DNA of 64,000 bases from Candidatus Gottesmanbacteria bacterium GW2011_GWA2_43_14. GTDB taxonomy: Bacteria > Patescibacteriota > Microgenomatia > 2-02-FULL-39-11. A program made the translations under genes and the position numbers. Each line of letters begins with the position of its first letter. The first letter of the stretch is position 1. The stretch covers positions 26,839-90,838 of the forward strand of contig LCFP01000003.1 of the NCBI GenBank assembly GCA_000999095.1. The letters are read 5' to 3'. This document shows positions 1,540 through 25,642 of the stretch, piece by piece. The notes beneath the pieces were generated by a model. The model worked only from the letters and a program-made list of their open reading frames with translations, had not been told where the DNA came from and did no database searches.

Positions 1540-2982
1540 TCAGGTCGGCAGTCTTTTGAAAAGAAAAACAGCAAAATTACCGACATCAGTCATCCTTTTA
1601 ATCATGAAATATTCCCCGTATTTTCCCAAAAACTTGGAATGACATTTTTCAATTTTTTCTTTGTCACATACAATAAACAGGTATTCGGGTGTTTCATTAA
1701 TCATATTGATACCGAAATCTGAATCCCCGGAGAATTTACTGAACTGATATTCAAGCTTTTCTTCAAAAAAATACCATAAAGACGGACTGTGGATGTAATT
1801 TCCCAGAACCATCAGGGTGTTGAAATCCTGCAGTTCGTTTTGCCTTACTTCTATTATCATCTGCTCTGCCAATTTCTGTTTTGTTAAGTAATCATCCTGT
1901 TTCCTGTACAAACGGTCATACGAATTTGAAATAAGAGATAAAAAATAAAATAAAAGAAAAAATCCGGACAAGCGGAAAGAGAGTTTTTTTGCACTGATAA
2001 TGTTGATGCCGAGATAACCGATTAATAGATAATAAAATGGAAAAACAGGGGTAAAGTAAGAAGAACAGCAATATTCACTGTTATTGCTTACGGCTATTAA
2101 AAATATTCCAATGGGAAAAAGTAAAAAAGCTATCTTTTTCAGAGAAAGATTATTCAGCAATATGCTGCCGACCAGTAAAATTAACAGGATGATTACCGCG
2201 GGCAAGATGTTTAATTTTTCGATCCTAAAGATACTTTCCAGGTAAAGAGGAACAAAACCGGTAATTTTAAAAATACTGAAATTCGGCCGGAATGAAGGAT
2301 AAACTCCGTCGCGGATATAAGTTTTTATCAACGGGATATTCAACAGTGTAAAAAACAGGAACAGCAATAAATTTGAAAAGAAAACCAACTTATAATTTTT
2401 GGTTTTCAGGTAAGCCCAAACAGCATAGGGAATAAGCAACAGGAACGGTGTGTAATAAATAAAACTTGATATGAAGATGAAAAGATACGACAGAAAGAAA
2501 AAGCCCAATTTCGACTTTTTCAAAAAAATCAGAAAAAAAGCAAAGGAAAAAACCGTCAGCGGGATAATTAAACTGCCACCCAGGATATTTCTTGAATAGA
2601 AAATTTCATTGGTAGCAACGGCAAAAAATAAAGCGGACAAAAGACCCGTCCGGTTATTAAAAAGCAGTTTTCCGATTAAATATATGGGGAAAACGGCAAG
2701 AGCATGAGTTGCGGCAATCAGGGAAATGATAAACTCCAGATTGCTGCTGATCAGCATGGGCAGAGCCAATATATAGTAGCCTATGACCGGATATTGGGAT
2801 TTTATTGCCCAGGCATACGGACCCTTTACCGGATGGTCAGCGTATTGAACTATATGTCTGGCAATCAGATAATAATAAGAGTTGTCACCGTCCCAGAGGG
2901 TCGGCAGTCTTTGCGCCAGACGTAAAATCAATCCCAGGGTAAAGATAAAAAAAAGGAGACGGCGGCTATTTGCCAGCTTCAT
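1540..2982 (-). CDS. polytopic membrane glycosyltransferase, GT-C fold (ArnT/PMT-like, GT39/GT83-type)
   Basis: 480 aa, more than 10 predicted TM helices, N-terminal region typical of dolichyl/undecaprenyl-phosphate-sugar dependent GT-C enzymes (…LWDGDNSYYYLIARHI…). Confidence 0.6.
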   Translation of the reverse strand: MKLANSRRLLFFIFTLGLILRLAQRLPTLWDGDNSYYYLIARHIVQYADHPVKGPYAWAIKSQYPVIGYYILALPMLISSNLEFIISLIAATHALAVFPIYLIGKLLFNNRTGLLSALFFAVATNEIFYSRNILGGSLIIPLTVFSFAFFLIFLKKSKLGFFFLSYLFIFISSFIYYTPFLLLIPYAVWAYLKTKNYKLVFFSNLLLFLFFTLLNIPLIKTYIRDGVYPSFRPNFSIFKITGFVPLYLESIFRIEKLNILPAVIILLILLVGSILLNNLSLKKIAFLLFPIGIFLIAVSNNSEYCCSSYFTPVFPFYYLLIGYLGINIISAKKLSFRLSGFFLLFYFLSLISNSYDRLYRKQDDYLTKQKLAEQMIIEVRQNELQDFNTLMVLGNYIHSPSLWYFFEEKLEYQFSKFSGDSDFGINMINETPEYLFIVCDKEKIEKCHSKFLGKYGEYFMIKRMTDVGNFAVFLFKRLPT

Positions 2983-12310: not shown

Positions 12311-15300
12311 ATGTCCAAGCTGAAAAAAGTATTTCATATTTCAATCATCATTCCAACTCTTAACGAAGAAAAGAATATCAAACCTTTGCTTGAGAGGATT
12401 GACGGAGCTTTAAAGGAGACGGCAATTGATTATGAGGTTATTTTTATTGATGACAGGTCAACAGACAAGACCTGTCAAATGATTAAGTTCTTCCAGCCTG
12501 CCTATCCAGTTTCCCTTTATCTTAAGAAAGGAAAAAAAGGCAAGGCTTTTTCCATACTAGAAGGCATTGAATATGCCAAGCACGATTTAATCGTGCTTTT
12601 GGACGGTGATTTGCAGTACGGGCCTGAAAATATACCGGTGATGGTGGTGAAAAGCAACAGGTTCGGAGTCGTGGTCGGCAACCGCAGGAAAAACAGGAAC
12701 GGTATTTTCCGTAAAATTGCCTCACGGATTAATACTGTTGTGACAAGTAAAATGCTATTAGGGATTGAGGCTGATACACAATCAGGCCTCAAAGTCGTCC
12801 GTAAAGAAATTTTCAATCATCTGGATCGAAGTAATATCGGCCCCTGGTCTCTGGATATTCCGCTTCTGAATACCGCTTACGAGTTGGGGTATGACATCGG
12901 TTCCGTCGATATAACCTTTGACAAAAGAATAAACGGAACTTCCAAAATAAATTTCCTGACAGCAGCAATTGAAATTCTTTCGGGGGCGGTAAAAGTAAAG
13001 CTTCACAGGAAGAAGGTTTACCCTATTACACCTTTGAAAAACGGGTCAATGCTTGGTGCCGGTATCGTTCATAAACGCCGGAATTACATAACCCATACCA
13101 CTCTTTCCCAAAAACAAAGCGCCATAGCCACTTTGACTTTCCCCCAGTTGATGTTTCTGGCAGTGATTTTCATAATATTTGCCGCCGGACTTCTGTTCAA
13201 CCCGCTGGGTCTTTTGAAGCTGACAGTGGCTATTATATCCTCGGTTTATTTTATTGATGTGATTTTCAACCTGTTCCTGCTTTCCAAAAGTTTAAAAAAA
13301 GATATTGAAATAAAAATATCTTCGGATGAGCTAAGACAATTGGATGTAACAAATTTACCCCTTTATTCAATCCTCTGTCCTTTGTATCGGGAAGCACACC
13401 TTATTCCGCAATTTGTAAAATCTCTTGATCAATTGGATTGGCCAAAAGACAAATTGGAAGTGGTTCTGCTCTTGGAAGCCGATGATTCTGAAACAATTGA
13501 TAAGGTCAGGCAAATCAAGCTGCCCGGCTATATCCGCAGCGAAATTGTTCCCGAATCTGAACCCAAGACCAAACCCAAAGCCTGCAATTACGGTTTAAAT
13601 ATCATCAGGGGTGAATATGTGGTCATTTATGATGCGGAAGACATACCGGATCCGCAACAATTAATGAAAGCCTATCTCGGTTTTGCCAAAGCCGGTCCCC
13701 GCGTCATCTGTCTGCAGGCCAAGCTCAATTATTACAATCCGAACCAGAATCTATTAACCAGATTGTTCACGGCTGAATATTCGTTATGGTTCGATATCAT
13801 CCTGCCGGGACTGCAGTCGATTGAAACCAGCATCCCATTGGGTGGCACTAGCAATCATTTCCGAAGGCAGGATTTGCTCAACCTTAAAGCTTGGGATCCT
13901 TTTAACGTGACGGAAGATTGCGATTTGGGGGTAAGGCTTTTTAAAAAAGGTTTTAAAACAGCCATTTTTGATTCAACCACCATGGAAGAAGCCAACAGCA
14001 ATGCCAAGAATTGGTTAAGACAGCGGTCACGCTGGATAAAAGGTTACATCCAGACATATTTGGTACACATGCGGCATCCTTTCGCCTATCTTAAAGAGCA
14101 CGGAACCCATGCCCTGATTTTCCAGTTGATTATAGGTGGACGTATCGCTTTTCTTTTCATAAACCCCTTTCTTTGGCTGGCTACCATTTCCTATTTTGCC
14201 CTTCGTGCCCAGGTCGGGGCGGCCATTGAAGCAGTTTATCCTGCGGCTGTTTTCTATATTGCCGTTTCTTCCCTGGTTTTCGGCAATTTCATGTACCTCT
14301 ACTATTACATGATCGCCTGCGCTAAAAAAAATCACTGGCATCTGGTGAAATATATCTTCCTGGTTCCTTTTTATTGGCTGATGGCCTCAGTCAGTGCGGG
14401 TCTGGCTCTGGTGCAAATTATCTTCAAGCCGTTTTATTGGGAAAAAACCATCCACGGCTTCCATCTCTCAATCCCGATCCAGGATTTTGTGGCGGCAGAA
14501 AAGCCAAAAAGGGCCAGGTTTTCATATTTGTACAAATTTATGCATATCGGCAGGATGAAGTTCCAAAATATGCTTAATTTTCTCGATTTGATATTTGGCC
14601 AGCAGACACCCGACATAAAACCAAACGGCAAACCGCGGATCCTGATTTTCAATTGGCGCGACATCAGGCATACCTGGGCAGGCGGAGCGGAAAGCTATAT
14701 CCATAATATAGCCGCCCAATGGGTCCGGCAGGGAAGCAAGGTTACCATATTTTGCGGTAATGACGGAACCCAAGAAAAGACTGATGAAATTGACGGAGTC
14801 AGAATTATCAGGCGGGGAGGTTTTTATTCATTATATTTCTGGGCAGTTTTATACTACATTTTCCATCTGCGCCGAAGCGTGGATATAGTGGTGGACTCGG
14901 GTAACGGCATTCCCTTTTTCACTCCGCTTTATGTTTTTAAACCCAAGTACCTGCTGATTTACCACATGCACCAGGAAGTTTTCCGCAGGCACCTGCCTCT
15001 GGTTTTATCAAACCTGGCCCAATTTTTAGAAAGAAGGTTAGTGCCTTTTATTTACAGGAACCAGAAAATAATTACCATTTCCGAATCTTCTAAAGAAGAA
15101 ATTGTCCGCCTTAGACTGGCTGATCCTAACAACGTTTTTATCGTAAATCCGGGCATTGATTTCGAAAAGTTCAATCTGCTGCCCAAAACAGATTTTCCGC
15201 TGATTACTTATTTGGGCAGATTGAAACCATATAAAAACATACATATCGTAATTGAAGCCTTTGTACATATTCTTTACAGGCATCCGGATGCCCAGCTGTT

Positions 15301-15772
15301 TATCGCGGGCAGCGGAGAAAGCCAATTTTTTCTCAATGATCTGGTTGCCAAATTGGGAATAGGTGAGAGCGTCTTTATTATAGGCAAAGTGTCCGAAATG
15401 GAGAAGAGAGCGCTTCTGGCCAGAAGCTGGCTGGTTGTCCAACCTTCTTCTGCTGAAGGATGGGGAATGACCGTCATTGAAGCCAATGCAGCCGGCACAC
15501 CGGTCGTTGCTTCGGATATACCGGGGCTTAGGGATTCAGTCATTCATAAATCCACCGGCATTTTGGTACCGGCAGGAGATATTATGGCTTTTACCGAAGC
15601 TATTAATTCTTTAATCTCCGACCGACGTATCCTGGACCGGTTGGCAATCAGCGCTTACAGCTGGGCGAAAAATTTCAATTGGAAGGAAAGCAGTGAAAAA
15701 TTTTACCGGCTGATAAATTATTCTCCGGAGCCTTACTTTTCCCTGGAATTTAAACGATTGGAACTGAATTAA
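12311..15772 (+). CDS. triple-domain glycosyltransferase: N-terminal GT2 (DPM-synthase-like) + membrane-embedded processive GT2 (cellulose/chitin-synthase-like; DAED, TED, QRSRW motifs) + C-terminal GT4
   Basis: ISIIIPTLNEE…FIDDRSTD (GT-A); YDAEDIPD…TEDCDLGVRL…QRSRWIKGY with flanking TM helices; C-terminal GT-B (E…G…AAGTPVVASDIPG) region. Confidence 0.75.
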   Translation: MSKLKKVFHISIIIPTLNEEKNIKPLLERIDGALKETAIDYEVIFIDDRSTDKTCQMIKFFQPAYPVSLYLKKGKKGKAFSILEGIEYAKHDLIVLLDGDLQYGPENIPVMVVKSNRFGVVVGNRRKNRNGIFRKIASRINTVVTSKMLLGIEADTQSGLKVVRKEIFNHLDRSNIGPWSLDIPLLNTAYELGYDIGSVDITFDKRINGTSKINFLTAAIEILSGAVKVKLHRKKVYPITPLKNGSMLGAGIVHKRRNYITHTTLSQKQSAIATLTFPQLMFLAVIFIIFAAGLLFNPLGLLKLTVAIISSVYFIDVIFNLFLLSKSLKKDIEIKISSDELRQLDVTNLPLYSILCPLYREAHLIPQFVKSLDQLDWPKDKLEVVLLLEADDSETIDKVRQIKLPGYIRSEIVPESEPKTKPKACNYGLNIIRGEYVVIYDAEDIPDPQQLMKAYLGFAKAGPRVICLQAKLNYYNPNQNLLTRLFTAEYSLWFDIILPGLQSIETSIPLGGTSNHFRRQDLLNLKAWDPFNVTEDCDLGVRLFKKGFKTAIFDSTTMEEANSNAKNWLRQRSRWIKGYIQTYLVHMRHPFAYLKEHGTHALIFQLIIGGRIAFLFINPFLWLATISYFALRAQVGAAIEAVYPAAVFYIAVSSLVFGNFMYLYYYMIACAKKNHWHLVKYIFLVPFYWLMASVSAGLALVQIIFKPFYWEKTIHGFHLSIPIQDFVAAEKPKRARFSYLYKFMHIGRMKFQNMLNFLDLIFGQQTPDIKPNGKPRILIFNWRDIRHTWAGGAESYIHNIAAQWVRQGSKVTIFCGNDGTQEKTDEIDGVRIIRRGGFYSLYFWAVLYYIFHLRRSVDIVVDSGNGIPFFTPLYVFKPKYLLIYHMHQEVFRRHLPLVLSNLAQFLERRLVPFIYRNQKIITISESSKEEIVRLRLADPNNVFIVNPGIDFEKFNLLPKTDFPLITYLGRLKPYKNIHIVIEAFVHILYRHPDAQLFIAGSGESQFFLNDLVAKLGIGESVFIIGKVSEMEKRALLARSWLVVQPSSAEGWGMTVIEANAAGTPVVASDIPGLRDSVIHKSTGILVPAGDIMAFTEAINSLISDRRILDRLAISAYSWAKNFNWKESSEKFYRLINYSPEPYFSLEFKRLELN

Positions 15773-15776
15773 TTTT

Positions 15777-16892
15777 ATGAAAATCTGTTTTTTCGGTACT
15801 TACTTCGCCAATTACGCCAGAAACACATCCATTAGGGAAGGGTTAAAAAGGTGTGGAATTGAAGTCGCGGAAGTCCATGCTGAAATTGCCAATATCCCCA
15901 TGGATCAATCAAACGACGTCACGCTTTTCAAAGTATTCTACCGGTTTGCCAGAAAAATCAAGGTGTACATACGGCTTTTATCACGGTACCGGGAAGTATT
16001 GTCGGCTGATTATATTTTTGTCCTGCATCCCGGCCATTTTGATCTGCCGTTTGCCTGGATACTGTCAAAACTCGGGGGTAAAAAGCTGTTTTTTGACTCC
16101 AGCATTTCCCACTATGACACGATGTTCGTCGGCGAGACGATCGGCAATCGCAGAACCCTCAAAGCCAAAATCATCAAATTGGCGGAAAAATTCTGCCTTC
16201 TGTTTCCCGATAGAATCTTTGTTGATACCGAAGCGATGAAGGATTTTATGGTCAGTGAGTTCAAAATCAGTGAGGAAAAAATATTCGTTGTTCCCCTCGG
16301 GGCAAATGACACTCTCTATAAACCAAACGGTAAAGTAAAACATAACGGCACAACTGATGTCTTTTTTTTCGGACTTTACAACCGGATGCAAGGCGCCGAT
16401 ATCATTATGAAAGCTATCAATCTCCTCAAAGAAGACAGCGATATTGCATTCACCATGCTCGGCGACGGATCTCTGAAAACCGAATTTGTTGAATTTGCCA
16501 GGAATCATAATCTGACTAATGTCCATTTCGTTGGTTTCGTCCCGGAAAAAGAACTTGTTTCCCACTTGCAGCAGGCTGATATAGCCCTAGGTGTGTTTTC
16601 CAACAGCCCTGTTTTTCAGAGAGTTATACCGAATAAAGTTTTTGCTGCCTTGGCTTGCGCCAAACCCCTTATCACAGCAAGGTATCAAGTACTGGAAGAA
16701 GTTTTGCATCACGAATATAATGTCTTTTTCTGTAAACCGGAGAATCCGGAGGATCTGGCAAAGGCAATCAGGAGTGTATCCCGCAACAGACGTCTGCAGG
16801 AAACTCTGTCGCAAAACGGCTATGTACTTTATAAAAGAAACTTTACACCCGATAAGATCGGAAAAACGTTAGCGGATCATCTTCATAACTGA
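15777..16892 (+). CDS. GT-B-fold glycosyltransferase (GT4-like C-terminal domain)
   Basis: C-terminal region LGVFSNSPVFQRVIPNKVFAALACAKPLI…; paralogue of 21840..22979. Confidence 0.6.
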   Translation: MKICFFGTYFANYARNTSIREGLKRCGIEVAEVHAEIANIPMDQSNDVTLFKVFYRFARKIKVYIRLLSRYREVLSADYIFVLHPGHFDLPFAWILSKLGGKKLFFDSSISHYDTMFVGETIGNRRTLKAKIIKLAEKFCLLFPDRIFVDTEAMKDFMVSEFKISEEKIFVVPLGANDTLYKPNGKVKHNGTTDVFFFGLYNRMQGADIIMKAINLLKEDSDIAFTMLGDGSLKTEFVEFARNHNLTNVHFVGFVPEKELVSHLQQADIALGVFSNSPVFQRVIPNKVFAALACAKPLITARYQVLEEVLHHEYNVFFCKPENPEDLAKAIRSVSRNRRLQETLSQNGYVLYKRNFTPDKIGKTLADHLHN

Positions 16893-16904
16893 TATGAAAA
16901 TCTT

Positions 16905-18530
16905 ATGAAAAGACTTCTCGGTTATGCCATCTTTACAGTGTATTGTATCTTTATTCTCGTCCTCTCGATCAGGGGTATACCGGGTAATCCGGCGGAAAAA
17001 ACACTCAATGACCCGCGTTGGGGGGAAGAAGGGCCGTTTGAGCTTTCACCCGAACGCGGAAGGTTTGCACTTCTCGTCTCGCTTATAGAGAATAAATCAT
17101 TTCATTTTTCACTACCCATTGCCAGGTTCGCCATTCCTGATCTTGGATATACCCAGGGGAATTATGTTTCATTGTTTGCTCCCGGACTTTCGATTATCTC
17201 CATTCCCGGATACCTCATCGGAAAATACTACAATAATTCACAGATAGGCACTTATGCCGTAGTAAGCTTGTTTGCCGTATTGAATGCCATTTTAATCAGA
17301 GCGCTGGCGCAACGCGCTGGGAGTACGAGCATTGCCTCCTCGCTTGCGGCACTAGTTTTTCTGTTTGCCACACCTGCTTATGCCTACGCCGTCTCTTTTT
17401 ACCAGCATCATCTTTCAACTTTTTTAATTCTAATTTCAATTTACCTCCTGATAACACTTAAAGGCGTCTTACCGCTTTATCTTCTGTGGATTCTCTTCGG
17501 AATTGCCCTTATTACCGATTATCCGAATGTTATTCTGATGCTTCCGATACTGTTATTTGCTTTAAAGAATTTAATTTATTTGGTAAATGACAACGGCAAA
17601 ACAATTGTAAATGTCAGAATTCTTGGTTTTATTTCATTAATAACAATTCTTATCCCTTTGTTTTTTCTGTTTTGGTTTAATCAAAATTCGTACGGCAATC
17701 CCATGAGTTTGGCCGGAACAGTTACTGCTGTTAAATCAATAGACAAGTCCGGAAGACCGGAGTTACCCAAAGTAGCTGGAGGTCAAAAAACAGCGGTCGG
17801 TTTTTTTAAATCCCGAAATATGTTCAACGGGATAAATATACTTCTGTTCAGTCCAGACAGGGGATTGTTTATTTATACTCCGGTTGTCCTGTTCAGTTTA
17901 TTTGGTATATGGGCAGCTTATAAAAAAAACCTGTATCTTTATCCGCTGTTCACAGCCCTTATCAGTATCAATATACTGCTATATTCCATGTGGGGAGATC
18001 CCTGGGGAGGTTGGGCATTCGGCTCCCGTTATCTTATCCCCGGTTTTGCCATAGCCTCCATATTTATAGCCATAGCCCTTACCCGTTATCACAGAAATAT
18101 TATCTTTTTTTTAATCTTTTTTATAACTTTAAGCTATTCTTTAGCAATTAATACATTGGGTGCTTTGACTTCCAACCGAAATCCTCCCCTGTCAGAAATA
18201 AAAGCATTGGAAAAGCTGTCGGGGAAAGCGGAAAAATATACTTACGAACGAAATTTAGATCTGTTATTAAACGGGGTATCAAAATCATATTTATTCCAAT
18301 CCTATGGTTCTAAATTTTTCAGTCCGGTTGAATATTACCGCCTGATTGTTTTTATGTTGGCGGCAGTCTGTTTTTTTCTGATTGTCGCGGATAACCTGTC
18401 TATTTTTAAAAATTACCATATGGAAAAAAGAGGCTGGCAAAAACTCATAATATATAAGAAACAACCGACGAAATACCAGCTTTCACATTTAGTAAATTTG
18501 TTCTTTATCAAAATAATGAAGCCAATCTAA
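16905..18530 (+). CDS. polytopic membrane glycosyltransferase, GT-C fold (PMT/ArnT-like); paralogue of 24074..25642
   Basis: 541 aa, more than 10 TM; shared motif MWGDPWGGWAFGSRYLIPG with paralogue. Confidence 0.6.
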   Translation: MKRLLGYAIFTVYCIFILVLSIRGIPGNPAEKTLNDPRWGEEGPFELSPERGRFALLVSLIENKSFHFSLPIARFAIPDLGYTQGNYVSLFAPGLSIISIPGYLIGKYYNNSQIGTYAVVSLFAVLNAILIRALAQRAGSTSIASSLAALVFLFATPAYAYAVSFYQHHLSTFLILISIYLLITLKGVLPLYLLWILFGIALITDYPNVILMLPILLFALKNLIYLVNDNGKTIVNVRILGFISLITILIPLFFLFWFNQNSYGNPMSLAGTVTAVKSIDKSGRPELPKVAGGQKTAVGFFKSRNMFNGINILLFSPDRGLFIYTPVVLFSLFGIWAAYKKNLYLYPLFTALISINILLYSMWGDPWGGWAFGSRYLIPGFAIASIFIAIALTRYHRNIIFFLIFFITLSYSLAINTLGALTSNRNPPLSEIKALEKLSGKAEKYTYERNLDLLLNGVSKSYLFQSYGSKFFSPVEYYRLIVFMLAAVCFFLIVADNLSIFKNYHMEKRGWQKLIIYKKQPTKYQLSHLVNLFFIKIMKPI

Positions 18531-18540
18531 AGTTATAATT

Positions 18541-19449
18541 GTGAAAAAACTCACGGTTACCATAGGAATTTCGGCTTATAACGAGGAAGGAAATATCGCT
18601 AAAATCCTAAAGTCGGTTATTTCTCAAAAGGAAAAAACGATTCAAATCAGCGAAATCCTTGTTTATTCTGACGGATCGACAGATCGGACTGTTCCAACTG
18701 CCAAGTCATTTAAGGACAAACGGATCCGGGTCGTCAATGACAAAATTCGACGCGGGAAAGCATTCCGGCTGAATCATATATTTTCTGTTATGAAAGGTGA
18801 TGTGCTCGTTCTTTTTGATGCCGATACGGTTCCTGTCAATTCCGAGATGCTTGAGTATATCTGCCGTCCATTCCATAGAAGATCATTCATTGGGCTTGCC
18901 GGAGGCCGTAGATATTCAATTCCTACGACTTCACTTACGGGTACCTCTTTGGCTAACTTATTTCACGCTTATGATGTGGTCCGGAAGGAGCTGCGAAACG
19001 GCATTAACATATATTGCTTTTTAGCCGGCATCACTGCTCTCTCACGTGATTTTGCCAAAGCGTTAACTCTTCCTCTTGATTCACCCTGTGATGATAATTT
19101 CATCTATCTTGAAGCGAAAAAGCGAGGGTTTTCCTTAGCATATGTACCCGAGGCGATCGTTTGGTTTTCCCCTCCGCAATCTGCATCCGATCAAATTTCG
19201 CAGGGTTCAAGATACCTGGCCAGCAGTTCGATATTAAGCAGATATTTTAATTCGACGTACGTCAAAGGCGAATTTTACGTTCCTTTTTATCTTCGCCTGA
19301 AAGTTTTCCTTTATCAGGTAAGACATAATCCCATTGCATTTCTGTGGTTAAAATGCTTGGCAGCCGTTTGCCACATACAAAACTTCAAAACCCAAAGACA
19401 TGTGAACGGTCTATACAGGAATGTATATTCAACTAAGAGATTGACATGA
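18541..19449 (+). CDS. GT2-family glycosyltransferase (GTG start)
   Basis: TIGISAYNEEGNI…VYSDGSTD GT-A signature. Confidence 0.7.
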   Translation: MKKLTVTIGISAYNEEGNIAKILKSVISQKEKTIQISEILVYSDGSTDRTVPTAKSFKDKRIRVVNDKIRRGKAFRLNHIFSVMKGDVLVLFDADTVPVNSEMLEYICRPFHRRSFIGLAGGRRYSIPTTSLTGTSLANLFHAYDVVRKELRNGINIYCFLAGITALSRDFAKALTLPLDSPCDDNFIYLEAKKRGFSLAYVPEAIVWFSPPQSASDQISQGSRYLASSSILSRYFNSTYVKGEFYVPFYLRLKVFLYQVRHNPIAFLWLKCLAAVCHIQNFKTQRHVNGLYRNVYSTKRLT

Positions 19450-20354
19450 AAACGCCGGCCGTTTCCATAGGCATTCCCACATATGAAGCGGGAATAAGCC
19501 TGATCAGAACTCTGAATTCAATTTTCAATCAATCCGCATTTTCCCAAATACGGGAAGTCATTATCGTAGTTGACGGAAATACTCTCACTCCCCAAGTTAG
19601 AAACAGATTGCGACATCCTAAAGTGCGCATTGTCATGCGACCCGAAAGAATGGGTCAATCTTCTTGCCTGAATTACATTTTTTCCCGGGTTCATAACGGG
19701 TTGCTTCTACTGACCAATGACGATGTTGTTCTTGATAAGCATGCTACCAAGAACTTCATAGAATGCTATATAGCACAAAGACCTGATTTTTTGGCGGCAC
19801 AAGCCAAGCCGTTACCGCCCAAAAGTCTGTTTGAGCGTATATTGTTTGCCGGTCAAACGATTAATACGCGTATCGCTTCGCGCTGGTTAAATGGTGATAA
19901 TTATCTGTCGGTGAACGGAAGAATGATCGCACTCTCCAGACGATTGTATTCAAATATATCTATCCCACCCGGATTATGGAATAACGATGCTTATATCTAT
20001 CTATACGCAAAATTGAAAAACCTAGGGTTTATTAATGTCAACAACGCGAGAGTATATTATAAACTTCCCGGAAACGTGGCAGACCATCTGCGTCAAAGTT
20101 ATAAATTTCACCTGTCGCAACGCGAAAACGAAATCTACTTTCATGATTCACTTACACGATTCTACAAAATTCCCGTATCACTTTCGATAAAGGCTATGAT
20201 ACATACACTTTTTGATCAACCGGTTTTTACTCCGCTTTATATAGTTTTTTCGGCTCTGACCCGTATATGGTTAACGATATCTCATCAATCACTTCCCAAT
20301 ACCGGATATTGGAATACTGACAGGTCGACAAAACTGCTGGGAGGTAAGTTATGA
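19446..20354 (+). CDS. GT2-family glycosyltransferase, tandem paralogue of upstream gene
   Basis: SIGIPTYEAG…VVDGNT; 4-bp overlap; same length (302 aa) as neighbour. Confidence 0.7.
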   Translation: MKTPAVSIGIPTYEAGISLIRTLNSIFNQSAFSQIREVIIVVDGNTLTPQVRNRLRHPKVRIVMRPERMGQSSCLNYIFSRVHNGLLLLTNDDVVLDKHATKNFIECYIAQRPDFLAAQAKPLPPKSLFERILFAGQTINTRIASRWLNGDNYLSVNGRMIALSRRLYSNISIPPGLWNNDAYIYLYAKLKNLGFINVNNARVYYKLPGNVADHLRQSYKFHLSQRENEIYFHDSLTRFYKIPVSLSIKAMIHTLFDQPVFTPLYIVFSALTRIWLTISHQSLPNTGYWNTDRSTKLLGGKL

Positions 20355-20476
20355 ATTCATTTTTTACCGATAGGTGTGATTTTCTTAAGAAGTTATTACC
20401 AATGTAAAGTATGAATCAGGCATAAAATTGTCATAAATGAATGATACGGAGGGGTTTATCCTCTCCTTATTAATCT

Positions 20477-21769
20477 ATGTACGATATCATCCTGCAAAAA
20501 CTGGAATCGAGAAAAAAACCGATAGAAGTGATTGTTTCGGGTTTGGGTTTTGTTAGTTTCGGTTTCATCTCATCAATCCGTAACTTCAAAGGTCTAAAAG
20601 TTCCCTTGGTCATTACCAGAAGACCGGCAGCCGCCCGCAGTTTTCTGGAAAAAAAAGGATTAAAAGCGGTTCTGGAAAACAATCCGGACAAAATTAAAGA
20701 CAATTCGAATCTGGGGATCATTTCCCTGACTGATGATTTAGAGCTTATCAATAATTATGAAAATGAAGTTGTAATAGAAATGACAGGTACGATTGCCTAC
20801 GGTACGAAAATTGCCTTAAAGACAATCAAGGCCGGGAAGCATCTGGTGACTATGAATCCGGAGCTTCAGGCGACCGTCGGAGCGGAACTTCATACATTGG
20901 CCAGCCGCAAAAAAGTGGTGGTAACAGATATCATCGGCGACCAGCCGGGCAGCCTGGCACGGTTGATAAACCAGGCGAAAGTGATGGGCTTCCGTGTTTT
21001 ACTGGCCGGTAATATGAAGAGGTTTTTGAACAGACATGCCACTCAGTCCGAAATGCAGAACTGGGCTGATAATAAGGGTTTGTCAGTCAAACAGACGGTT
21101 TCTTTTACCGACGGTACCAAACAATCGATAGAAATGAATCTGGTAGCCAATTATTTCAATATGGATATCCTGGAATTCGGCATGCATGGGCCAACAGTCG
21201 AAACTGTTCATGATTCGTTAAACTCTTTTCACTGGGACAAGTTACCCCGGGAAGGCATTGTTGACTACGTTATAGGAAAAAAATTGTTTCCGGGTGTTTT
21301 TCTCATCGCCGAACATCCGGACAAAAACCAAAAACCATACCTATCTTATCTCGGTTTGGGAGAGGGACCCCGTTATGTCCTTTTTGAGCCTTATCATTTG
21401 TGCCATCTGGAGGTTGCGGGCTCAATCGCCAAAGTAATTCTGACCAAAAAGGAAATAATCAGCAATACTTACCCGAAAACCAGGACGATCGCCGTAGCGA
21501 AATACAGGCTTTACCCGGGGCAGAAATTGGATGGTATCGGCGGTGATCTTATTTACGGGAATATTGATAAAGATGAATATGCAAAAGATTTTCTGCCCGT
21601 CGGTCTAACCGAAGGGGCTGTTCTTAAAAAAGCTTTACATCAGGACCAGCCGATCAAAATCTCTGATGTTATTTTGCCACAAAACGCCGCCACTATTTTA
21701 ACCGGATTGGCAGAAAGCCCAAGAGGAAAGGAAAAAATAGATTATGAATTCCCGTCAGTTAAGGTTTAA
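20477..21769 (+). CDS. NAD(P)-binding oxidoreductase with C-terminal SAF-like domain (COG4091 'predicted homoserine dehydrogenase'-like)
   Basis: N-terminal Rossmann GxGxxG (VSGLGFVSFG); size and domain order match COG4091; assignment by recall only. Confidence 0.4.
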   Translation: MYDIILQKLESRKKPIEVIVSGLGFVSFGFISSIRNFKGLKVPLVITRRPAAARSFLEKKGLKAVLENNPDKIKDNSNLGIISLTDDLELINNYENEVVIEMTGTIAYGTKIALKTIKAGKHLVTMNPELQATVGAELHTLASRKKVVVTDIIGDQPGSLARLINQAKVMGFRVLLAGNMKRFLNRHATQSEMQNWADNKGLSVKQTVSFTDGTKQSIEMNLVANYFNMDILEFGMHGPTVETVHDSLNSFHWDKLPREGIVDYVIGKKLFPGVFLIAEHPDKNQKPYLSYLGLGEGPRYVLFEPYHLCHLEVAGSIAKVILTKKEIISNTYPKTRTIAVAKYRLYPGQKLDGIGGDLIYGNIDKDEYAKDFLPVGLTEGAVLKKALHQDQPIKISDVILPQNAATILTGLAESPRGKEKIDYEFPSVKV

Positions 21770-21838
21770 ATGTCCAGAAAATACCAGCTAAGAGTACTTC
21801 TTTTACTGCTTATATCTGCCGGCCAAATATTGATCTAA
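21770..21838 (+). CDS. possible 22-aa hydrophobic micro-ORF (MSRKYQLRVLLLLLISAGQILI) at the boundary of an AT-rich segment
   Basis: ATG abuts the upstream stop and its own stop is followed by the next ATG; no SD; may be non-coding. Confidence 0.2.
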   Translation: MSRKYQLRVLLLLLISAGQILI

Positions 21839-21839
21839 A

Positions 21840-22979
21840 ATGAAAATTCTTTACTTCGGCTCTTATGACAATGATTACATTAGAAACGTTATTAATATAA
21901 AAGGTCTCAGATTAAACCTAGTTGATGTAATAGTATGTAATTTTTATAAAAGAAAATTATTTATAGCATCTGAATATTCGAAAATTACTTATCTAATTAG
22001 AATTTCTACTTCATTGTTTTACCGTTCGATTTATCTTTTTTTTAAAGGAATAATTATTATTATTAAGCAAAAAATTTCATATATCATTATTGGATTTCCT
22101 GGTCATCTTGATATTCCGATAGGCTATCTTATCGCAAAAATAACCGGTAGCAAAATAATTTTTGATCCTTTTATATCGCTATATGATACCTTTGTAACTG
22201 ACAGAAAAATTTTTAGCACTGACTCCTTAATTTCAAAAAGCATAAAAAAGTACGAAACCGCAATATATAAACTTCCAGATTTAATTTTGACACATACAGA
22301 GACTGATAAGTTATATTTCTCAAAAAGTTTCAAGATCCCCTTGAATAAGATCAAAGTTCTTTACATTGGAAGTGATAATTTAACGCAAAAAACCACTGCG
22401 CTCACCGGGAAATCTTCCGATTTTTCAGTTGTATATCAAGGCAACTTTATTCCATTACACGGAATTGAACATATTATTCATTCTGCATTTATTCTGAGTC
22501 AAATAGATAAAAAAATTAAATTTATATTCGTTGGAAACGGACAAACATATCAAGAAAATTTTAATCTCGCAAACATATTAAAACTTAGAAATGTTGTTTT
22601 TAAAGGATTCGTTTCAATATATGACTGGAAAAAAACAATTAATAAGGCCGATATTATATTAGGGATTTTCCAAAATTCGGTGAAGGCTTCTAAATCGATA
22701 CCAAATAAAGTAATTCAAGGAATTGCAGCTAAAAAAGCCGTAATTACCGCAGAAACTACAGCAATTAAAGAATTATTTAATCACTTTGAAAATATGTATT
22801 TCTGCAAACCAGCAGATCCTCTCTCTTTAGCGAACGGAATATTAGAACTAAAAAGAAATTCGAATCTAAGGAATAAAATCGCTTATAACGGGAATAAAAT
22901 ATACAAAAATAAACTAACGCCAATTTCAGTAGGGCGTGAGTTACTGACTATTTGTAACGAGTTTCAAAATTCAAATTAA
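21840..22979 (+). CDS. GT-B-fold glycosyltransferase, AT-rich paralogue of 15777..16892
   Basis: Aligned N-terminus MKILYFGSYDNDY vs MKICFFGTYFANY and C-terminal …IPNKV…FCKPADP; local GC about 28%. Confidence 0.6.
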   Translation: MKILYFGSYDNDYIRNVINIKGLRLNLVDVIVCNFYKRKLFIASEYSKITYLIRISTSLFYRSIYLFFKGIIIIIKQKISYIIIGFPGHLDIPIGYLIAKITGSKIIFDPFISLYDTFVTDRKIFSTDSLISKSIKKYETAIYKLPDLILTHTETDKLYFSKSFKIPLNKIKVLYIGSDNLTQKTTALTGKSSDFSVVYQGNFIPLHGIEHIIHSAFILSQIDKKIKFIFVGNGQTYQENFNLANILKLRNVVFKGFVSIYDWKKTINKADIILGIFQNSVKASKSIPNKVIQGIAAKKAVITAETTAIKELFNHFENMYFCKPADPLSLANGILELKRNSNLRNKIAYNGNKIYKNKLTPISVGRELLTICNEFQNSN

Positions 22980-22980
22980 A

Positions 22981-24069
22981 ATGAAAATAATAATTTCTAA
23001 TTACGATGAAATAAAAAATCCTTATTATGGCGGAGGAGGAGCTATGAGTAATCATAAAATCGGTAAATATTTAGCGGAAAAAAATGAAGTAATGATTATT
23101 TGTGGCGCATTTAAAGGCTGCAGGAACGGTGTTGTAGAAGGTGTATTTTATAAACATATTGGTATAAAAAGATTTGGTCCAATTTTGGGACAGATATTCT
23201 TTTCGTTATTACTGCCCGTATTCGCGTTGATAGAAAATTATGATTTATGGGTAGAAAATTTTGTACCGCCTCATTCTACCAATTTCATTCCAATTTTCAC
23301 CAATAAACCCGTCGTGGGGGTCAGTTCACTCTTGCACGCAAAAGAATTTAGTCAAAAATATGGAATCCCGTTTTATTTAATAGAAAATTTAGGTCTAAAA
23401 TTCTATAAGAATATCCTTGTATTGAGTAATGAATATGCTAAAAAAGTCCAAAAAATCAATAAAAAAGCGAAAATAGTAGAAATTCCAAGGGGGGTAGATG
23501 ACGCTTATTTTGAAATTAAAGGAAATGAGAACAACTATATATTGTATTTAGCGCGAATTGATATTTTCCAAAAAGGTTTAGATTTATTGTTGAAAGCATG
23601 GAAAAAAGTAGTTTATAGGTATCCGCATATCAAATTAGTTATAGCAGGAAATACTACATTTGCAGAAGAAAGAAAATTCAAGCAAATCGTTGATCAACTT
23701 TCATTAGATAAAAATGTTAAGTATATAGGATTGGTAAAAGGAGAAAAAAAAAGAACCCTATTATCAAACTCTCTTTGTGTGATCAGTCCATCACGGTTTG
23801 AAAGCTTCGGCAATTCATCATTGGAAACATTAGCAGCAGGGAAATGCTTAATAGTATTTGATATACCCGGTTATTGCTGGATACCGGAAAATGTTTCAGT
23901 AAAAATAAAGTCGGTAAATTTCAATTTGTTAGCTGTGGCAATTGAAAGAGTCATTTCCAATAAAGAATTAAGAATTAAGTACGGAAAACTAGCAAGGAAT
24001 TTTGCTGAAAATTATAGATGGAAAAAAATATTTAAATTGTACGAAGCTTATTTTTTAAATGTAAATTAA
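22981..24069 (+). CDS. GT4-family glycosyltransferase
   Basis: GT4 motifs (…ESFGNSSLETLAAGKCLIVFDIPG…); AT-rich. Confidence 0.7.
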   Translation: MKIIISNYDEIKNPYYGGGGAMSNHKIGKYLAEKNEVMIICGAFKGCRNGVVEGVFYKHIGIKRFGPILGQIFFSLLLPVFALIENYDLWVENFVPPHSTNFIPIFTNKPVVGVSSLLHAKEFSQKYGIPFYLIENLGLKFYKNILVLSNEYAKKVQKINKKAKIVEIPRGVDDAYFEIKGNENNYILYLARIDIFQKGLDLLLKAWKKVVYRYPHIKLVIAGNTTFAEERKFKQIVDQLSLDKNVKYIGLVKGEKKRTLLSNSLCVISPSRFESFGNSSLETLAAGKCLIVFDIPGYCWIPENVSVKIKSVNFNLLAVAIERVISNKELRIKYGKLARNFAENYRWKKIFKLYEAYFLNVN

Positions 24070-24073
24070 ATAT

Positions 24074-25642
24074 ATGAAGCTCTTAAAAGCAATTAGTTTT
24101 ATTTCATTTTGCATTGCGATATCCGTCTTATTAACTCTCACAATAAAGGGTAACGAAGGTAACCCTTTACCCTTTCAAAACGATCATAATACTAAGGTGG
24201 GGGGGCCATTTGAAGCATCCAACACAACTTCAAGGTATGCTTTAACTTTGGCAATTGCTGAAAACGGATCATTTTTTCTCAATGAAGATTTGGCCAAGTT
24301 TGCTTCACCTGATGTAGTCAAATATAAAGACATGTATATGTCAATCTTTGCGCCCGGAGTATCATTTATAGTAATTCCATTTTATCTTTTTGGAAAAAAA
24401 CTGGGACTTCCTCAGGTAGTTACATTTTTAAGCGTAACTTTCTTTGCCTTATTCAATCTTTTTTTAATAGCCTGGATTTCCATAAAACTGGGATCCGGAT
24501 TCTGGACGGGTTTTTTGGGCGGATTTATTTTCTTATTCGGTACCAATGCCTTGTCATATGCACAAACACTTTCCCAGCACCATTTTACTGTGACAGTTGC
24601 ACTCCTGGCAATAATTACGGCCATGGGTAAACGGACCCTTATCAAAAATATCTGGTTCGGGATATTGTTTGGACTTGGTGTATTGGTAGATATTCCCAAT
24701 GTTTTTCTACTGGCTCCGATTCTTATTTATATTCTGTACAGGCAATTCTATCGGGAGATTTCTGCTGAAATTATTCGAGTCAACATGTCCTTAAATTTTA
24801 TCGGGTTAATTTTAGGAGTGCTGCCGTTTATTGCCTTATTTGCCTGGTATAACAGAGCTACCACCGGTTCATACACAATGCTTGCGCAATCAATCGGTCG
24901 GATGGAAGAGCATGGGGAAACGTTCTCTCAAAGTGATTCAGTAATCCTTCGGGAACAAAAAGATGTCAGAGCTCCGAAAGGAATCCGATTACCTTTTAAT
25001 CCAAGAAAACAGTTAGCCGGAGCGTACACATTATTTATAAGTGATGAAAGATCATGGATATATTACAGTCCGGTAGTCCTTTTAGGTATTTTTGGTCTTT
25101 TTAAACTTCTTAAAAATCAAAAATACAGAGAATTTGCAGCAGTTTCATTGTCAGTGATTTTTCTTAACGGTATTATGTATTCCATGTTTGGAGACCCCTG
25201 GGGGGGTTGGGCATTCGGACCCAGGTATTTAATTCCGGCGGGAGCGCTGTTGTCTATCGGATTAAGCATAATTTATACCAATTGGAACAGGAATATTCTT
25301 TTTATGTTGATTTTTGTGATTTTGGCTATTTATAGTCTGCGCATCAATACTCTCGGTGTGACAACAACCACTATGATTCCGCCGAAGATAGAGGCAATTA
25401 ATCTTCCTAAACCTATACCTTACACCTACGACTATAACTTCCAGCTTCTGAATAAGAATATCTCCAGTTCACTAATTTATAATCGCTTCTTGTCTAAAAA
25501 ACTGACTGCCACAGATTATTCTTACAGGCTCTTCATATCTGTTTCTTCGGTTTTTCTATTACTCACAATAGCTTCTTATTTCGAAATAAAAACATTAATT
25601 AAGAAATCTCATTACAGGAAGATATATATAAATAACATATGA
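24074..25642 (+). CDS. polytopic membrane glycosyltransferase, GT-C fold; paralogue of 16905..18530
   Basis: 522 aa, more than 10 TM; MFGDPWGGWAFGPRYLIPAG motif shared. Confidence 0.6.
   Translation: MKLLKAISFISFCIAISVLLTLTIKGNEGNPLPFQNDHNTKVGGPFEASNTTSRYALTLAIAENGSFFLNEDLAKFASPDVVKYKDMYMSIFAPGVSFIVIPFYLFGKKLGLPQVVTFLSVTFFALFNLFLIAWISIKLGSGFWTGFLGGFIFLFGTNALSYAQTLSQHHFTVTVALLAIITAMGKRTLIKNIWFGILFGLGVLVDIPNVFLLAPILIYILYRQFYREISAEIIRVNMSLNFIGLILGVLPFIALFAWYNRATTGSYTMLAQSIGRMEEHGETFSQSDSVILREQKDVRAPKGIRLPFNPRKQLAGAYTLFISDERSWIYYSPVVLLGIFGLFKLLKNQKYREFAAVSLSVIFLNGIMYSMFGDPWGGWAFGPRYLIPAGALLSIGLSIIYTNWNRNILFMLIFVILAIYSLRINTLGVTTTTMIPPKIEAINLPKPIPYTYDYNFQLLNKNISSSLIYNRFLSKKLTATDYSYRLFISVSSVFLLLTIASYFEIKTLIKKSHYRKIYINNI

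Follow-up and report, generated by a model that had tools for sequence, protein, structure and literature searches.

An AT-rich pair of GT4 glycosyltransferase genes in a variable surface-glycan locus of a Gottesmanbacteria genome is probably xenologous

Organization of the glycan locus

The window analysed here is a stretch of 64,000 nucleotides (42% GC) from Candidatus Gottesmanbacteria GW2011_GWA2_43_14, a groundwater CPR bacterium. Genes are designated by their first position in this window, and their coordinates are collected in Table 1. An AT-rich pair of GT4 genes, 21840 and 22981, lies in the variable slot of a surface-glycan gene cluster that is common to Microgenomates. Comparison of ~100 related loci reveals a cluster order of giant GT, 1–6 variable GT2/GT4 genes, GT-C membrane enzyme, P539 and P411, in which the GT2/GT4 genes occur in differing combinations between conserved flanks. 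Identity across loci is 42–69% for the giant GT, 61–74% for P539 in 406 genome loci, and 39–59% among full-length homologues of P411. A profile–profile comparison of P539 with the GT-C enzymes gave a weak match (probability 16%). Among 30 proteins scanned around the cluster, Pfam recognised no Wzx/Wzy or ABC exporter families, and a literature search for this glycan locus in CPR found nothing specific.

Table 1. Coordinates of the genes and features at the glycan locus
Feature	Position	Strand	Basis or remark
Giant GT2-GT2-GT4 fusion glycosyltransferase	12311..15772	+	Pfam; conserved 5' anchor
GT4A_up, 43% GC, deep-branching paralogue of 21840	15777..16892	+	Pfam, pairwise comparison, tree
GT-C-fold membrane protein, type U	16905..18530	+	Paralogue of 24074; non-canonical position
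Two GT2 genes	18541-19449 and 19446-20354	+	Pfam; variable-region GTs, host-like GC
Terminator-like hairpin	20448..20466	+	Consensus scan only; 122-nt gap 5' of DRL
DRL-type NAD oxidoreductase	20477..21769	+	PF21135 E 4e-44; left flank, host-like GC
AT-rich block, about 29-30% GC	21732..24111	.	Likelihood change points and GC profile
Hydrophobic micro-ORF, 22 codons, MSRKYQLRVLLLLLISAGQILI	21770..21838	+	Fills DRL-GT4A spacer
GT4A_dn, GT4 (GT-B fold) glycosyltransferase, 379 aa	21840..22979	+	PF00534 58.5 bits, cutoff 26.4
GT4B, second GT4 glycosyltransferase, 362 aa	22981..24069	+	PF00534 88.2 bits, cutoff 26.4
GT-C-fold membrane glycosyltransferase (predicted), type D	24074..25642	+	Right flank; directly upstream of P539
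P539	25639-27258	+	Conserved 3' anchor gene
P411	27265-28500	+	Conserved 3' anchor gene

The DRL gene borders the pair on its left, and the DRL family co-occurs with the GT4A family (Fisher p = 5e-4). In other genomes, close DRL orthologues (56–67%) sit between P539 and P411, with another ~1.3–2 kb separating DRL from P411 in most relatives. The terminator-like hairpin upstream of DRL is a possible operon boundary. Both junctions of the pair show operon-style stop–start spacing, and the spacers of only 1–4 nt suggest translational coupling, through which 21840 and 22981 appear to be expressed within a DRL-to-P411 operon.

The micro-ORF begins with an ATG placed directly after the DRL TAA, and a single nucleotide separates its own TAA from the ATG of 21840. 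Its shuffle probability is 0.017 per spacer; as a gene it is unproven, with no support beyond its existence. Its derivation from the 5' end of P411 as a relic is likewise unsupported, given the distance that mostly separates DRL and P411 in relatives, and signal-peptide-like N-termini are too short and degenerate for alignment.

Composition and borders of the AT-rich block

The original prediction for this stretch described two genes of about 28% GC, with a codon style of their own, between flanks of 42–48% GC, and the measurements bear out both properties of the pair. Gene 21840 has 28.2% GC and 23.4% GC3, and 22981 has 30.5% GC and 25.3% GC3. Relative to the 48 other window genes (mean GC 43.2 ± 2.8%), the respective z scores are −5.4 and −4.6 for GC and −5.3 and −4.9 for GC3, and no others among the 50 window genes deviate strongly in composition. 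Codon-bias B is also raised (z = +2.0 and +2.7), the FYMINK amino-acid fraction reaches 0.466 and 0.421 compared with 0.315 ± 0.038, and GC1 and GC2 are shifted as well. In the proposed sliding-window check GC is not uniform: calculated in 500-nt windows, it dips to 0.27–0.32 between 21750 and 24500, against 0.43–0.46 upstream. The expected flank composition is thus found on the upstream side, whereas downstream 24074 has only 37% GC.

Both likelihood change points (21732 and 24111) lie at most 40 nt from a gene border, namely the DRL stop at 21769 and the start of 24074, respectively. The micro-ORF had been placed exactly at the upstream compositional boundary; a 22-codon ORF does exist there, but the border is situated ~38 nt 5' of its start, within the 3'-terminal part of DRL.

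Per-family regression of gene GC on host GC, performed over ~100 related loci, yields residual z scores of −4.6 for 21840 and −2.7 for 22981, compared with −0.8 for 24074 and −0.1 for 16905, and implies a donor reference GC of 31–34%. The GC3 slopes of GT4A and GT2 genes (0.41–0.54) are shallow relative to those of conserved genes (0.79–0.90), which indicates incomplete equilibration to the host. Variable GTs are nevertheless AT-rich as a class: 92–100% of 176 such genes fall below the host reference GC, with mean deficits of −4.2 to −7.4 points, and 21840 ranks only 9th lowest of 190. At one related locus (L007), the homologues of 21840 and 22981 are AT-rich (38% and 41%) against 52–57% GC in the other genes.

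This near-universal AT-richness means that part of the deficit is a property of the gene class, and endogenous bias accordingly stays a rival explanation. Under endogenous drift, variable GTs would be intrinsically AT-rich because selection is relaxed, mutation is AT-biased or low expression is selected for, and the pair would represent the extreme tail of that distribution, with no transfer involved; that neither a donor nor a mobility signature was found is in keeping with such an origin. Drift is nonetheless rather unlikely. The residuals of both genes persist once family trends are removed, the borders are sharp at gene edges, and within the same locus the paralogue 15777 (43%) and the two GT2 genes (18541, 42%; 19446, 41%) lack the deficit. 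Moreover, the joint shift of GC1, GC2 and amino-acid content is that expected from a long stay in a low-GC genome, and the conserved residues kept by both proteins give no visible sign of relaxed selection.

The paired GT4 glycosyltransferases

Both cassette proteins carry the Glycos_transf_1 C-terminal domain that they share with GT4 glycosyltransferases of exopolysaccharide and cell-wall-glycan synthesis (WcaI-, EpsE-, PglJ/H- and TuaC-like). The NCBIfam models of these enzymes match weakly and below threshold, and no equivalog-level match was obtained for either protein. Both ORFs are intact, 21840 keeping 16 of 17 family-conserved columns (at least 85% conserved) and 22981 keeping 35 of 38 subfamily-conserved columns (at least 90% conserved). 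Since their Pfam scores exceed the threshold and conserved residues are kept, both enzymes look functional.

The original prediction regarded 21840 as a paralogue of 15777, a relationship that is real but ancient, with 31% identity over 376 aa (E 5e-54). In the NJ tree, 21840 falls inside the main Microgenomates GT4A clade as sister to L007/P0002, while the copy with host-like GC, 15777, is the deep-branching member; the latter is 49% identical to a gene in another locus (L117). Gene 22981 shows no significant similarity to 15777 and belongs to a different GT4 subfamily, so that it duplicates nothing upstream. A search of 5.8 billion proteins returned a best homologue 42% identical to 21840, and best homologues 51–52% identical to 22981 in Microgenomates contigs of 33–37% GC. 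The closest relatives of 22981 share its placement 5' of a GT-C gene. The nearest homologues of both proteins are all CPR/Microgenomates-like, the trees being NJ only.

GT-C enzymes and the relation of the two modules

Gene 24074, on the right flank of the pair, encodes a protein whose AF2 model (pLDDT 89.7, pTM 0.90) has GT-C proteins as all of its top 14 Foldseek matches in the PDB. ArnT (5ezm) scores best (E 1.9e-5, TM 0.47), and the top matches comprise ArnT, STT3, ALG3/9, AftA/B and Emb (E 1.9e-5 to 7e-2, TM 0.36–0.47). The predicted structure thereby identifies 24074 as a membrane glycosyltransferase of GT-C fold, and the folds that it matches first are those of the polyprenyl-phosphate-sugar GT-Cs (ArnT, AftA/AftB/Emb, PMT/GT39, STT3). 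This GT-C family has invariant acidic and aromatic residues (E47, D80, D206; GDPWGGWAFGPRY); E47 and D80, which do not vary among 42 sequences, are placed by the predicted model after helix 1 and ahead of the membrane helices that follow. Unlike those known enzymes, the window GT-C proteins have no match in curated sequence families: none was found in Pfam at E ≤ 0.01, NCBIfam NF047440 gave 34–36 bits against a cutoff of 200, and at sequence level no PDB chain was matched. The Pfam domain PF13231 (PMT_2) is present in some GT-C homologues only.

A paralogous relation between 24074 and 16905 had also been proposed, and it too is genuine but old, with 35% identity over 523 aa (E 1e-70). The GT-C family comprises two deep types, and the two window copies lie on opposite sides of the split, with 96% bootstrap for the U clade. 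The presence of both types in this genome is unusual, and two GT-C genes per locus are rare (2/63).

The two modules, 5 kb apart, lie on one strand and share both gene families and their order, an arrangement that would result if 15777-18530 had recently been duplicated within the genome and the copy had then diverged quickly and decayed towards AT. Such a duplication is excluded for practical purposes by the paralogue identities of 31% and 35%, by the closer relatives in other genomes (42–53%; within this range, 42% for 21840, 49% for 15777 and 52% for either GT-C gene) and by the bootstrap-supported GT-C split; 22981, moreover, lacks an upstream counterpart. The phylogeny proposed for the paralogue pairs therefore speaks against recent duplication, but it also places 21840 in the mainstream of Microgenomates GT4A proteins. 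The upstream 15777/16905 pair is an ancient alternative version, of type U, of such a unit rather than a duplication source.

The original prediction further held that the GT/GT-C module is present twice, with one copy foreign. The GT4A and GT-C paralogies and the foreign composition of 21840 agree with this statement, whereas the unmatched 22981 and the family-normal GC of 24074 do not. A related possibility is that a larger foreign unit, the whole GT4/GT4/GT-C module (21840-25642, perhaps with P539), arrived as a second module copy. Gene 24074 is indeed somewhat AT-rich within the window (37%, z = −2.2; ~33% in its first 400 nt), adjacency of GT4A and MEM recurs in some loci, and the rarity of two GT-C genes per locus would suit a second copy. 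This larger unit is improbable, however: the change point at 24111 falls right at the start of 24074, the GC of 24074 is typical of its family, as is that of 16905, and related loci canonically carry a GT-C gene immediately 5' of P539, which makes 24074 the copy expected to be resident. Its family-normal GC and its canonical position in nearly all related loci indicate that 24074 flanks the foreign block and is not part of it.

Assembly integrity and population evidence

The metagenome source of the sequence raises the question of an assembly or binning artefact, in which an AT-rich segment of another organism was joined in silico. The ends of several short contigs fall close to the block (at 21646, 21689, 21812 and 23363-23603), and clustered mismatch tracts in flanking conserved genes point to chimeric assembly among co-occurring relatives. 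Two contigs from different assemblies (L001 and L002) nevertheless reach across the left junction, from within DRL to within 22981, at 99–100% identity; no independent short contig showed the right junction. Together with the operon-like spacing at both junctions and the record of the cassette protein on five contigs of 50–200 kb, this coverage makes an artefact very improbable.

The cassette is identical in strain contigs L001–L006 and L116, and their differences form clustered tracts in flanking conserved genes, so that these strains carry no information on cassette gain or loss. An 8-bp deletion at 23083-23090 is a candidate population allele. Exact-protein lookup for DRL and 24074, in search of cassette-less strains, found neither protein on record. 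Anchored on P539, no close host relative exceeded 74% identity in 185,579 species genomes and the metagenome collection, same-population contigs aside.

Signs of mobility and exchange

No integrase was found, the window contains no tRNA, flanking repeats occur at chance level only, and promoters or terminators at the block borders do not rise above chance. A phage origin of the cassette was rejected, as viral homologues are absent. Among the 5.8 billion proteins searched there is neither a donor nor a near-identical copy of the cassette. A direct signal of recent exchange among the loci sampled, defined as gene pairs exceeding their own P539 identity by >5 points, was obtained for 2 of 13,207 pairs, both between L024 and L072; a general exchange model consequently rests mainly on composition and patchy distribution.

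Proposed origin of the AT-rich pair

The evidence favours, with some reserve, a xenologous origin in which the AT-rich GT4 pair entered by recombination within the locus, with a phylum member of lower GC as its source, probably replacing the resident GT4A and adding 22981. The donor was probably another Microgenomates bacterium of lower GC, a relative of ~31–34% GC; we infer both the direction and the timing of this transfer. The displaced GT4A would have been the partner of the adjacent DRL and of the type-D GT-C enzyme, and 22981 would have been gained as a second transferase. The predicted xenologous insertion is thereby supported as regards the compositionally foreign pair, but a xenologous replacement in a variable slot would fit better than the insertion of a duplicate module, because 21840 is a mainstream GT4A by phylogeny and synteny and stands beside the co-occurring DRL and a type-D GT-C gene.

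Functionally, the two enzymes may extend a lipid-linked glycan intermediate by two sugars taken from nucleotide-sugar donors; the GT-C enzymes would then elaborate this intermediate or transfer it outside the membrane. A swap of the pair would then change the structure of the cell-surface glycan, in a manner similar to a serotype switch.

Comparison with known glycan loci

Decades of O-antigen and capsule work lead one to expect a foreign GT pair in the variable part of a glycan locus. The context of the pair is more useful than the pair itself, in that a conserved-flank, AT-rich-variable-core architecture also operates in CPR/Microgenomates bacteria. Next to nothing is known of the cell-surface chemistry of these bacteria, which are ultra-small, have not been cultured and probably live as episymbionts. 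Hosts and phages probably meet them at their surface glycans, and the P539 anchor, conserved across the phylum, offers a handle to retrieve the locus from any Microgenomates genome and to catalogue glycan 'serotypes'.

A broader reading, offered tentatively and itself doubtful, is that Microgenomates possess a phylum-wide, O-antigen-like hypervariable locus built on unfamiliar machinery (giant GT, dimorphic GT-C, P539, P411), whose GTs are continually exchanged from an AT-rich pool. If this reading is true, the combination of both GT-C types with a freshly swapped GT pair would yield two glycans or a hybrid glycan in this genome, and the micro-ORF would be a junction relic that now couples translation of the host DRL to that of the foreign genes.

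Salmonella O-antigen clusters contain GT, wzx and wzy genes of low GC (28–37% vs 51–52% for the genome), a feature attributed to lateral transfer (PMC3715488). Enterobacterial O-antigen (rfb) and capsule clusters likewise display conserved flanks around a variable GT set, variable genes far below genome GC (here 28–30% vs 42%) and segments of mixed GC within one cluster, as at the present locus; their donors are usually unidentified, and the pattern is read as lateral replacement altering the glycan. In contrast to those loci, the CPR/Microgenomates host is without LPS, Wzx, Wzy and an ABC exporter were not recognised in the cluster, and the conserved machinery consists of GT-C-fold membrane enzymes together with the uncharacterised conserved P539 and P411. 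As far as tested, the locus falls outside the Wzx/Wzy and ABC classes, but it works like the variable region of an O-antigen or capsule cluster.

Composition and gene content of the AT-rich block

Gene assignments from Pfam identify a glycan-biosynthesis cluster encoded on the + strand (Table), in which the glycosyltransferase (GT) genes starting at 21840 (GT4A) and 22981 (GT4B) stand apart in base composition. In 500-nt windows, GC is 0.27–0.32 from approximately 21750 to 24500 compared with 0.43–0.46 upstream, and the overall window GC is 42.1%. Relative to the 48 other window ORFs (GC 43.2 ± 2.8%, GC3 45.8 ± 4.2%), 21840 and 22981 have GC z-scores of −5.4 and −4.6 and GC3 z-scores of −5.3 and −4.9, respectively. 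The two genes also deviate in codon usage (distance z = +2.0 and +2.7), and amino acids with AT-rich codons (FYMINK) make up 0.466 and 0.421 of the products compared with 0.315 ± 0.038. None of the 48 other ORFs is a comparable compositional outlier. The AT-rich dip and the distinct codon style described in the original prediction are therefore real, and the dip is large. Two-segment likelihood places change points at 21732 and 24111, at most 40 nt from the stop of the oxidoreductase gene DRL (21769) and the start of 24074, respectively; as these are gene borders, the block consists of exactly 21840 and 22981.

Features of the glycan-biosynthesis cluster and its surroundings, in window coordinates
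Feature	Position	Strand	Basis	GC (%)	GC1 / GC2 / GC3
Third GT-C-type gene, PMT_2	1540-2982	-	PF13231	36.6	
Short GT2, 226 aa	6199-6879	+			
Giant GT, GT2-GT2-GT4 fusion, 1153 aa	12311-15772	+	Pfam		
GT4	15777-16892	+	Pfam		
Membrane protein, 541 aa	16905-18530	+	no Pfam match		
GT2	18541-19449	+	Pfam		
GT2	19446-20354	+	Pfam		
Terminator-like hairpin	20448-20466	+			
DRL-type NAD oxidoreductase	20477-21769	+	PF21135		
Micro-ORF, 22 codons	21770-21838				
12-mer, first copy	21836-21847				
GT4, AT-rich (GT4A)	21840-22979	+	Pfam	28.2	0.33 / 0.29 / 0.23
12-mer, second copy	22977-22988				
GT4, AT-rich (GT4B)	22981-24069	+	Pfam	30.5	0.38 / 0.28 / 0.25
Membrane protein, 522 aa	24074-25642	+			
P539, 539 aa	25639-27258	+	no Pfam match		
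P411, secreted, 411 aa	27265-28500	+			

Both AT-rich ORFs are intact, score above the Pfam threshold and retain 16 of 17 (21840) and 35 of 38 (22981) family-conserved residues; groundwater metagenomes from project PRJNA268031 contain exact copies of the 21840 product. A Pfam scan of neighbouring proteins recognised no Wzx/Wzy or ABC exporter near the cluster. Upstream of the cluster lie a third GT-C-type gene and a short GT2, the latter of which could be a polyprenyl-phosphate sugar synthase feeding GT-C donors.

A conserved locus with a variable slot

A P539-anchored search found 406 loci among species-representative genomes, and 80 of these were retrieved; 27 loci from a metagenome collection and 5 from exact-protein look-ups were added. 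Across Gottesman-, Woese-, Levy-, Ames-, Davies-, Curtiss-, Shapiro- and Chisholmbacteria, among others, P539 identity is 61–74% and gene order is conserved: the giant GT is followed by one to six GT2/GT4 genes, one GT-C gene, P539, sometimes DRL, and P411. The GT2/GT4 combinations between giant GT and GT-C differ from locus to locus. The direct upstream neighbour of GT-C is most often a GT2 (42 loci), less often a GT4B resembling 22981 (13 loci) or a GT4A resembling 21840 (5 loci); any GT4A is present in only 14 of 63 loci. This architecture places the AT-rich pair in the standard variable slot. Specifically, 24074 is the resident GT-C gene at its canonical place, and 15777 and 16905, following the giant GT, are a non-canonical addition.

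P539 is a membrane protein found in all Microgenomates classes and conserved far beyond its neighbours; profile comparison relates it only weakly to the GT-C family (hhalign probability 16%), with which it has the motif GD(P/T)W..RY in common. P411, secreted or anchored and likewise lacking a Pfam family, carries a near-invariant W(W)xFQSIDTMKYSRD directly after its signal anchor. In one related locus (L007, 12668–15499), P411 is apparently fused to a P539-like part in a single 943-aa protein. Titles of many public MAG records (for example L010, L012, L014, L017 and L042) name 'uncultured Gammaproteobacteria', 'Bathyarchaeia archaeon' or 'Eisenbacteria', although the locus they carry is clearly of Microgenomates type; the taxonomy in such titles is unreliable.

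Deep paralogy of the two GT modules

The predicted paralogies hold for 21840 and 15777 (31% identity over full length, E 5e-54) and for 24074 and 16905 (35% identity, E 1e-70). Similarity between 22981 and 15777 is not significant, 22981 belonging to a different GT4 subfamily, and the GC of 24074 is normal for its family; the proposed paralogy of the GT/GT-C module thus stands, and a foreign origin of one whole copy is not supported.

The GT-C label of the membrane proteins is borne out at the level of fold. The AlphaFold2 model of 24074 (pLDDT 89.7, pTM 0.90; alignment of 42 homologues) has only GT-C enzymes among its best 14 Foldseek PDB matches, led by ArnT (E 1.9e-5, TM 0.47) and followed by STT3, ALG3, ALG9, AftA/B, EmbA-C and Pmt4. 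By sequence, neither 24074 nor 16905 falls in a curated GT-C family, and both are therefore classed as GT-C fold, unclassified family. GT-C genes adjoining P539 form two deep types, U and D, with a few outliers that fit neither well. Type U shows about 42–53% identity to 16905 and about 32–38% to 24074, and type D the reverse; identity averages 0.47 among type-U sequences, 0.44 among type-D sequences and 0.31 between the two types. GT-C type is scattered nearly randomly over the P539 tree (25 Fitch changes compared with 28.7 ± 2.5 for shuffled labels), which indicates that U and D behave as alternative forms, often switched or lost. The window genome has both types, and its locus is one of only 2 among 63 with two GT-C genes.

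Phylogenies of both paralogue pairs bear directly on a recent in-genome duplication as the source of the second GT module. The GT-C copies belong to the separate deep types, with the U clade monophyletic at 96% NJ bootstrap. In the GT4A tree, 21840 lies within the main Microgenomates clade as sister to the L007 gene, whereas 15777, of host-like GC, branches deeply with genes of loci L018 and L066; its closest relative is a gene of L117 (49% identity). Together, the type split and the GT4A tree exclude recent duplication and indicate deep paralogy.

Origin of the AT-rich pair

Gene GC was regressed, per family and across loci, on host reference GC (P539 + P411). For the window host, this regression predicts 35.1% for GT4A and 38.2% for GT4B, so that 21840 and 22981 lie 4.6 and 2.7 SD below expectation; their GC contents would be typical in a host of about 31–34% GC. 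In contrast, 24074 (−0.8 SD), 16905 (−0.1 SD) and DRL (+0.1 SD) are as expected. The foreign part of the predicted second GT/GT-C module accordingly contracts to the two GT4 genes. Host-like GC in 15777 (43.0%) and the GT2 genes (42.0% and 41.0%) of the same locus also counts for transfer. The nearest relatives of 22981 (51–52% identity, gene GC 32–36%) reside on contigs of 33–37% GC, where they too occupy the variable region ahead of GT-C, and in L118, a locus with a 49% identical relative, the order GT4B, GT-C, P539, P411 matches the window.

Purely endogenous AT bias without transfer would draw on the behaviour of the variable GTs as a class. Between 92 and 100% of them fall under host GC, which amounts to a systematic AT bias, and 21840 is only the ninth most extreme of 190. 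Two further observations count for transfer. GC3 slopes against host are 0.41 for GT4A and 0.54 for GT2, compared with 0.79–0.90 for GT-C, giant GT and DRL, indicating that variable GTs follow host composition less closely than conserved genes (incomplete equilibration). In L007 (6759–11146), neighbours have 52–57% GC compared with 38% for the 21840 homologue (42% identity) and 41% for the gene directly upstream, which joins a C-terminal homologue of 22981 to GT2 and pyruvyl-transferase domains; GC3 of both homologues is about 30 points under that of their neighbours.

The transfer claim is further limited by closest homologues of only 42% (21840) and 52% (22981) identity. The P539-anchored search found no close relative of the host in the species-representative genome or metagenome collections; no mobility signatures of the block were found in the window, and no phage relatives were found. 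Variable GTs are more alike than P539 in only one sampled genome pair (L024/L072). On balance, transfer from a lower-GC Microgenomates bacterium is moderately favoured, and purely endogenous bias is considered less likely.

Proposed replacement within the locus, and the micro-ORF

DRL occurs in 7 of 8 GT4A-bearing loci and in 8 of 41 without GT4A (Fisher p = 5e-4). Its close orthologues (56–67% identity; L014, L026, L027, L066 and L071) all lie in type-D GT-C loci that also carry GT4A, split into two ORFs in L014. This co-occurrence makes DRL, GT4A and type-D GT-C look like a functional trio. In these five loci DRL lies between P539 and P411, so the window locus is rearranged and, DRL having moved, the left edge of the block is a synteny breakpoint. 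In the window the trio is contiguous, and only GT4A, with the extra 22981, is compositionally foreign. In place of the predicted insertion of a duplicate module, the co-occurrence and the canonical position of 24074 favour replacement in the variable slot; on the simplest reading, recombination within the locus would have let a xenologue displace the resident GT4A, with 22981 added.

The micro-ORF predicted at the boundary exists (MSRKYQLRVLLLLLISAGQILI) and fills the DRL–21840 spacer exactly, with a weak AAGG motif 7–10 nt 5′ of it. Shuffling its 81-nt region yields an ORF of at least 22 codons in 1.7% of cases, a rate that is unremarkable across about 50 window spacers. Derivation from the 5′ end of P411, which lies downstream of DRL in relatives, was not supported. 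The micro-ORF may be a junction relic incidentally coupling ribosomes from DRL into 21840; that it is functional appears quite improbable.

Proposed expression and role

Block genes are tightly packed, with stop–start spacers of 1–4 nt: TAA-A-ATG at both AT-rich gene starts and TAA-ATAT-ATG ahead of 24074. Both AT-rich starts carry the identical 12-mer TAAAATGAAAAT (stop, A, ATG AAA AT); by chance, 3 kb of AT-rich DNA would give roughly one exact match of this length, but here both copies are in register with the start codons. The only sizeable spacer of the cluster, 122 nt separating DRL from the second GT2, contains a GC-rich hairpin with a T-rich tail, and the cluster may therefore be two transcription units. 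From this arrangement, 21840 and 22981 would be expressed from a DRL-to-P411 operon through translational coupling. As putative cytoplasmic GT-B enzymes, they would each add a sugar, two in all, to a lipid-linked intermediate, after which the GT-C enzymes would finish the glycan, or transfer it, on the outer side of the membrane. A swap of the GT pair would then alter surface-glycan structure.

Possible variants among independent contigs

One contig (L006:1271, JGI sample 3300025309) matches the window throughout but lacks 8 bp (23083–23090), which frameshifts 22981; the deletion reflects either a null allele present in the population or a mistake in assembly. Three otherwise identical contigs from other assemblies (L002, L001 and L116) show clustered differences in conserved genes: 11 SNPs in 67 nt (21487–21553), a 22-nt stretch replaced in frame by 10 nt (21666–21688), and growing divergence inside P539 from 25816 onward. 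Two independent contigs share an exact start at 21689. The probable cause is chimeric assembly, or recombination, involving relatives that co-occur.

Comparison with known systems

Literature searches found no paper describing this glycan locus in CPR bacteria. The phylum-wide locus, its dimorphic GT-C and the highly conserved P539 are by-products of greater interest than the AT-rich pair itself. The pair matches the classic pattern of enterobacterial O-antigen clusters and is a further example of that familiar type, of modest interest. In operation the window locus resembles those clusters, but on the tests made it belongs to neither the Wzx/Wzy nor the ABC class, and its host is a CPR bacterium.
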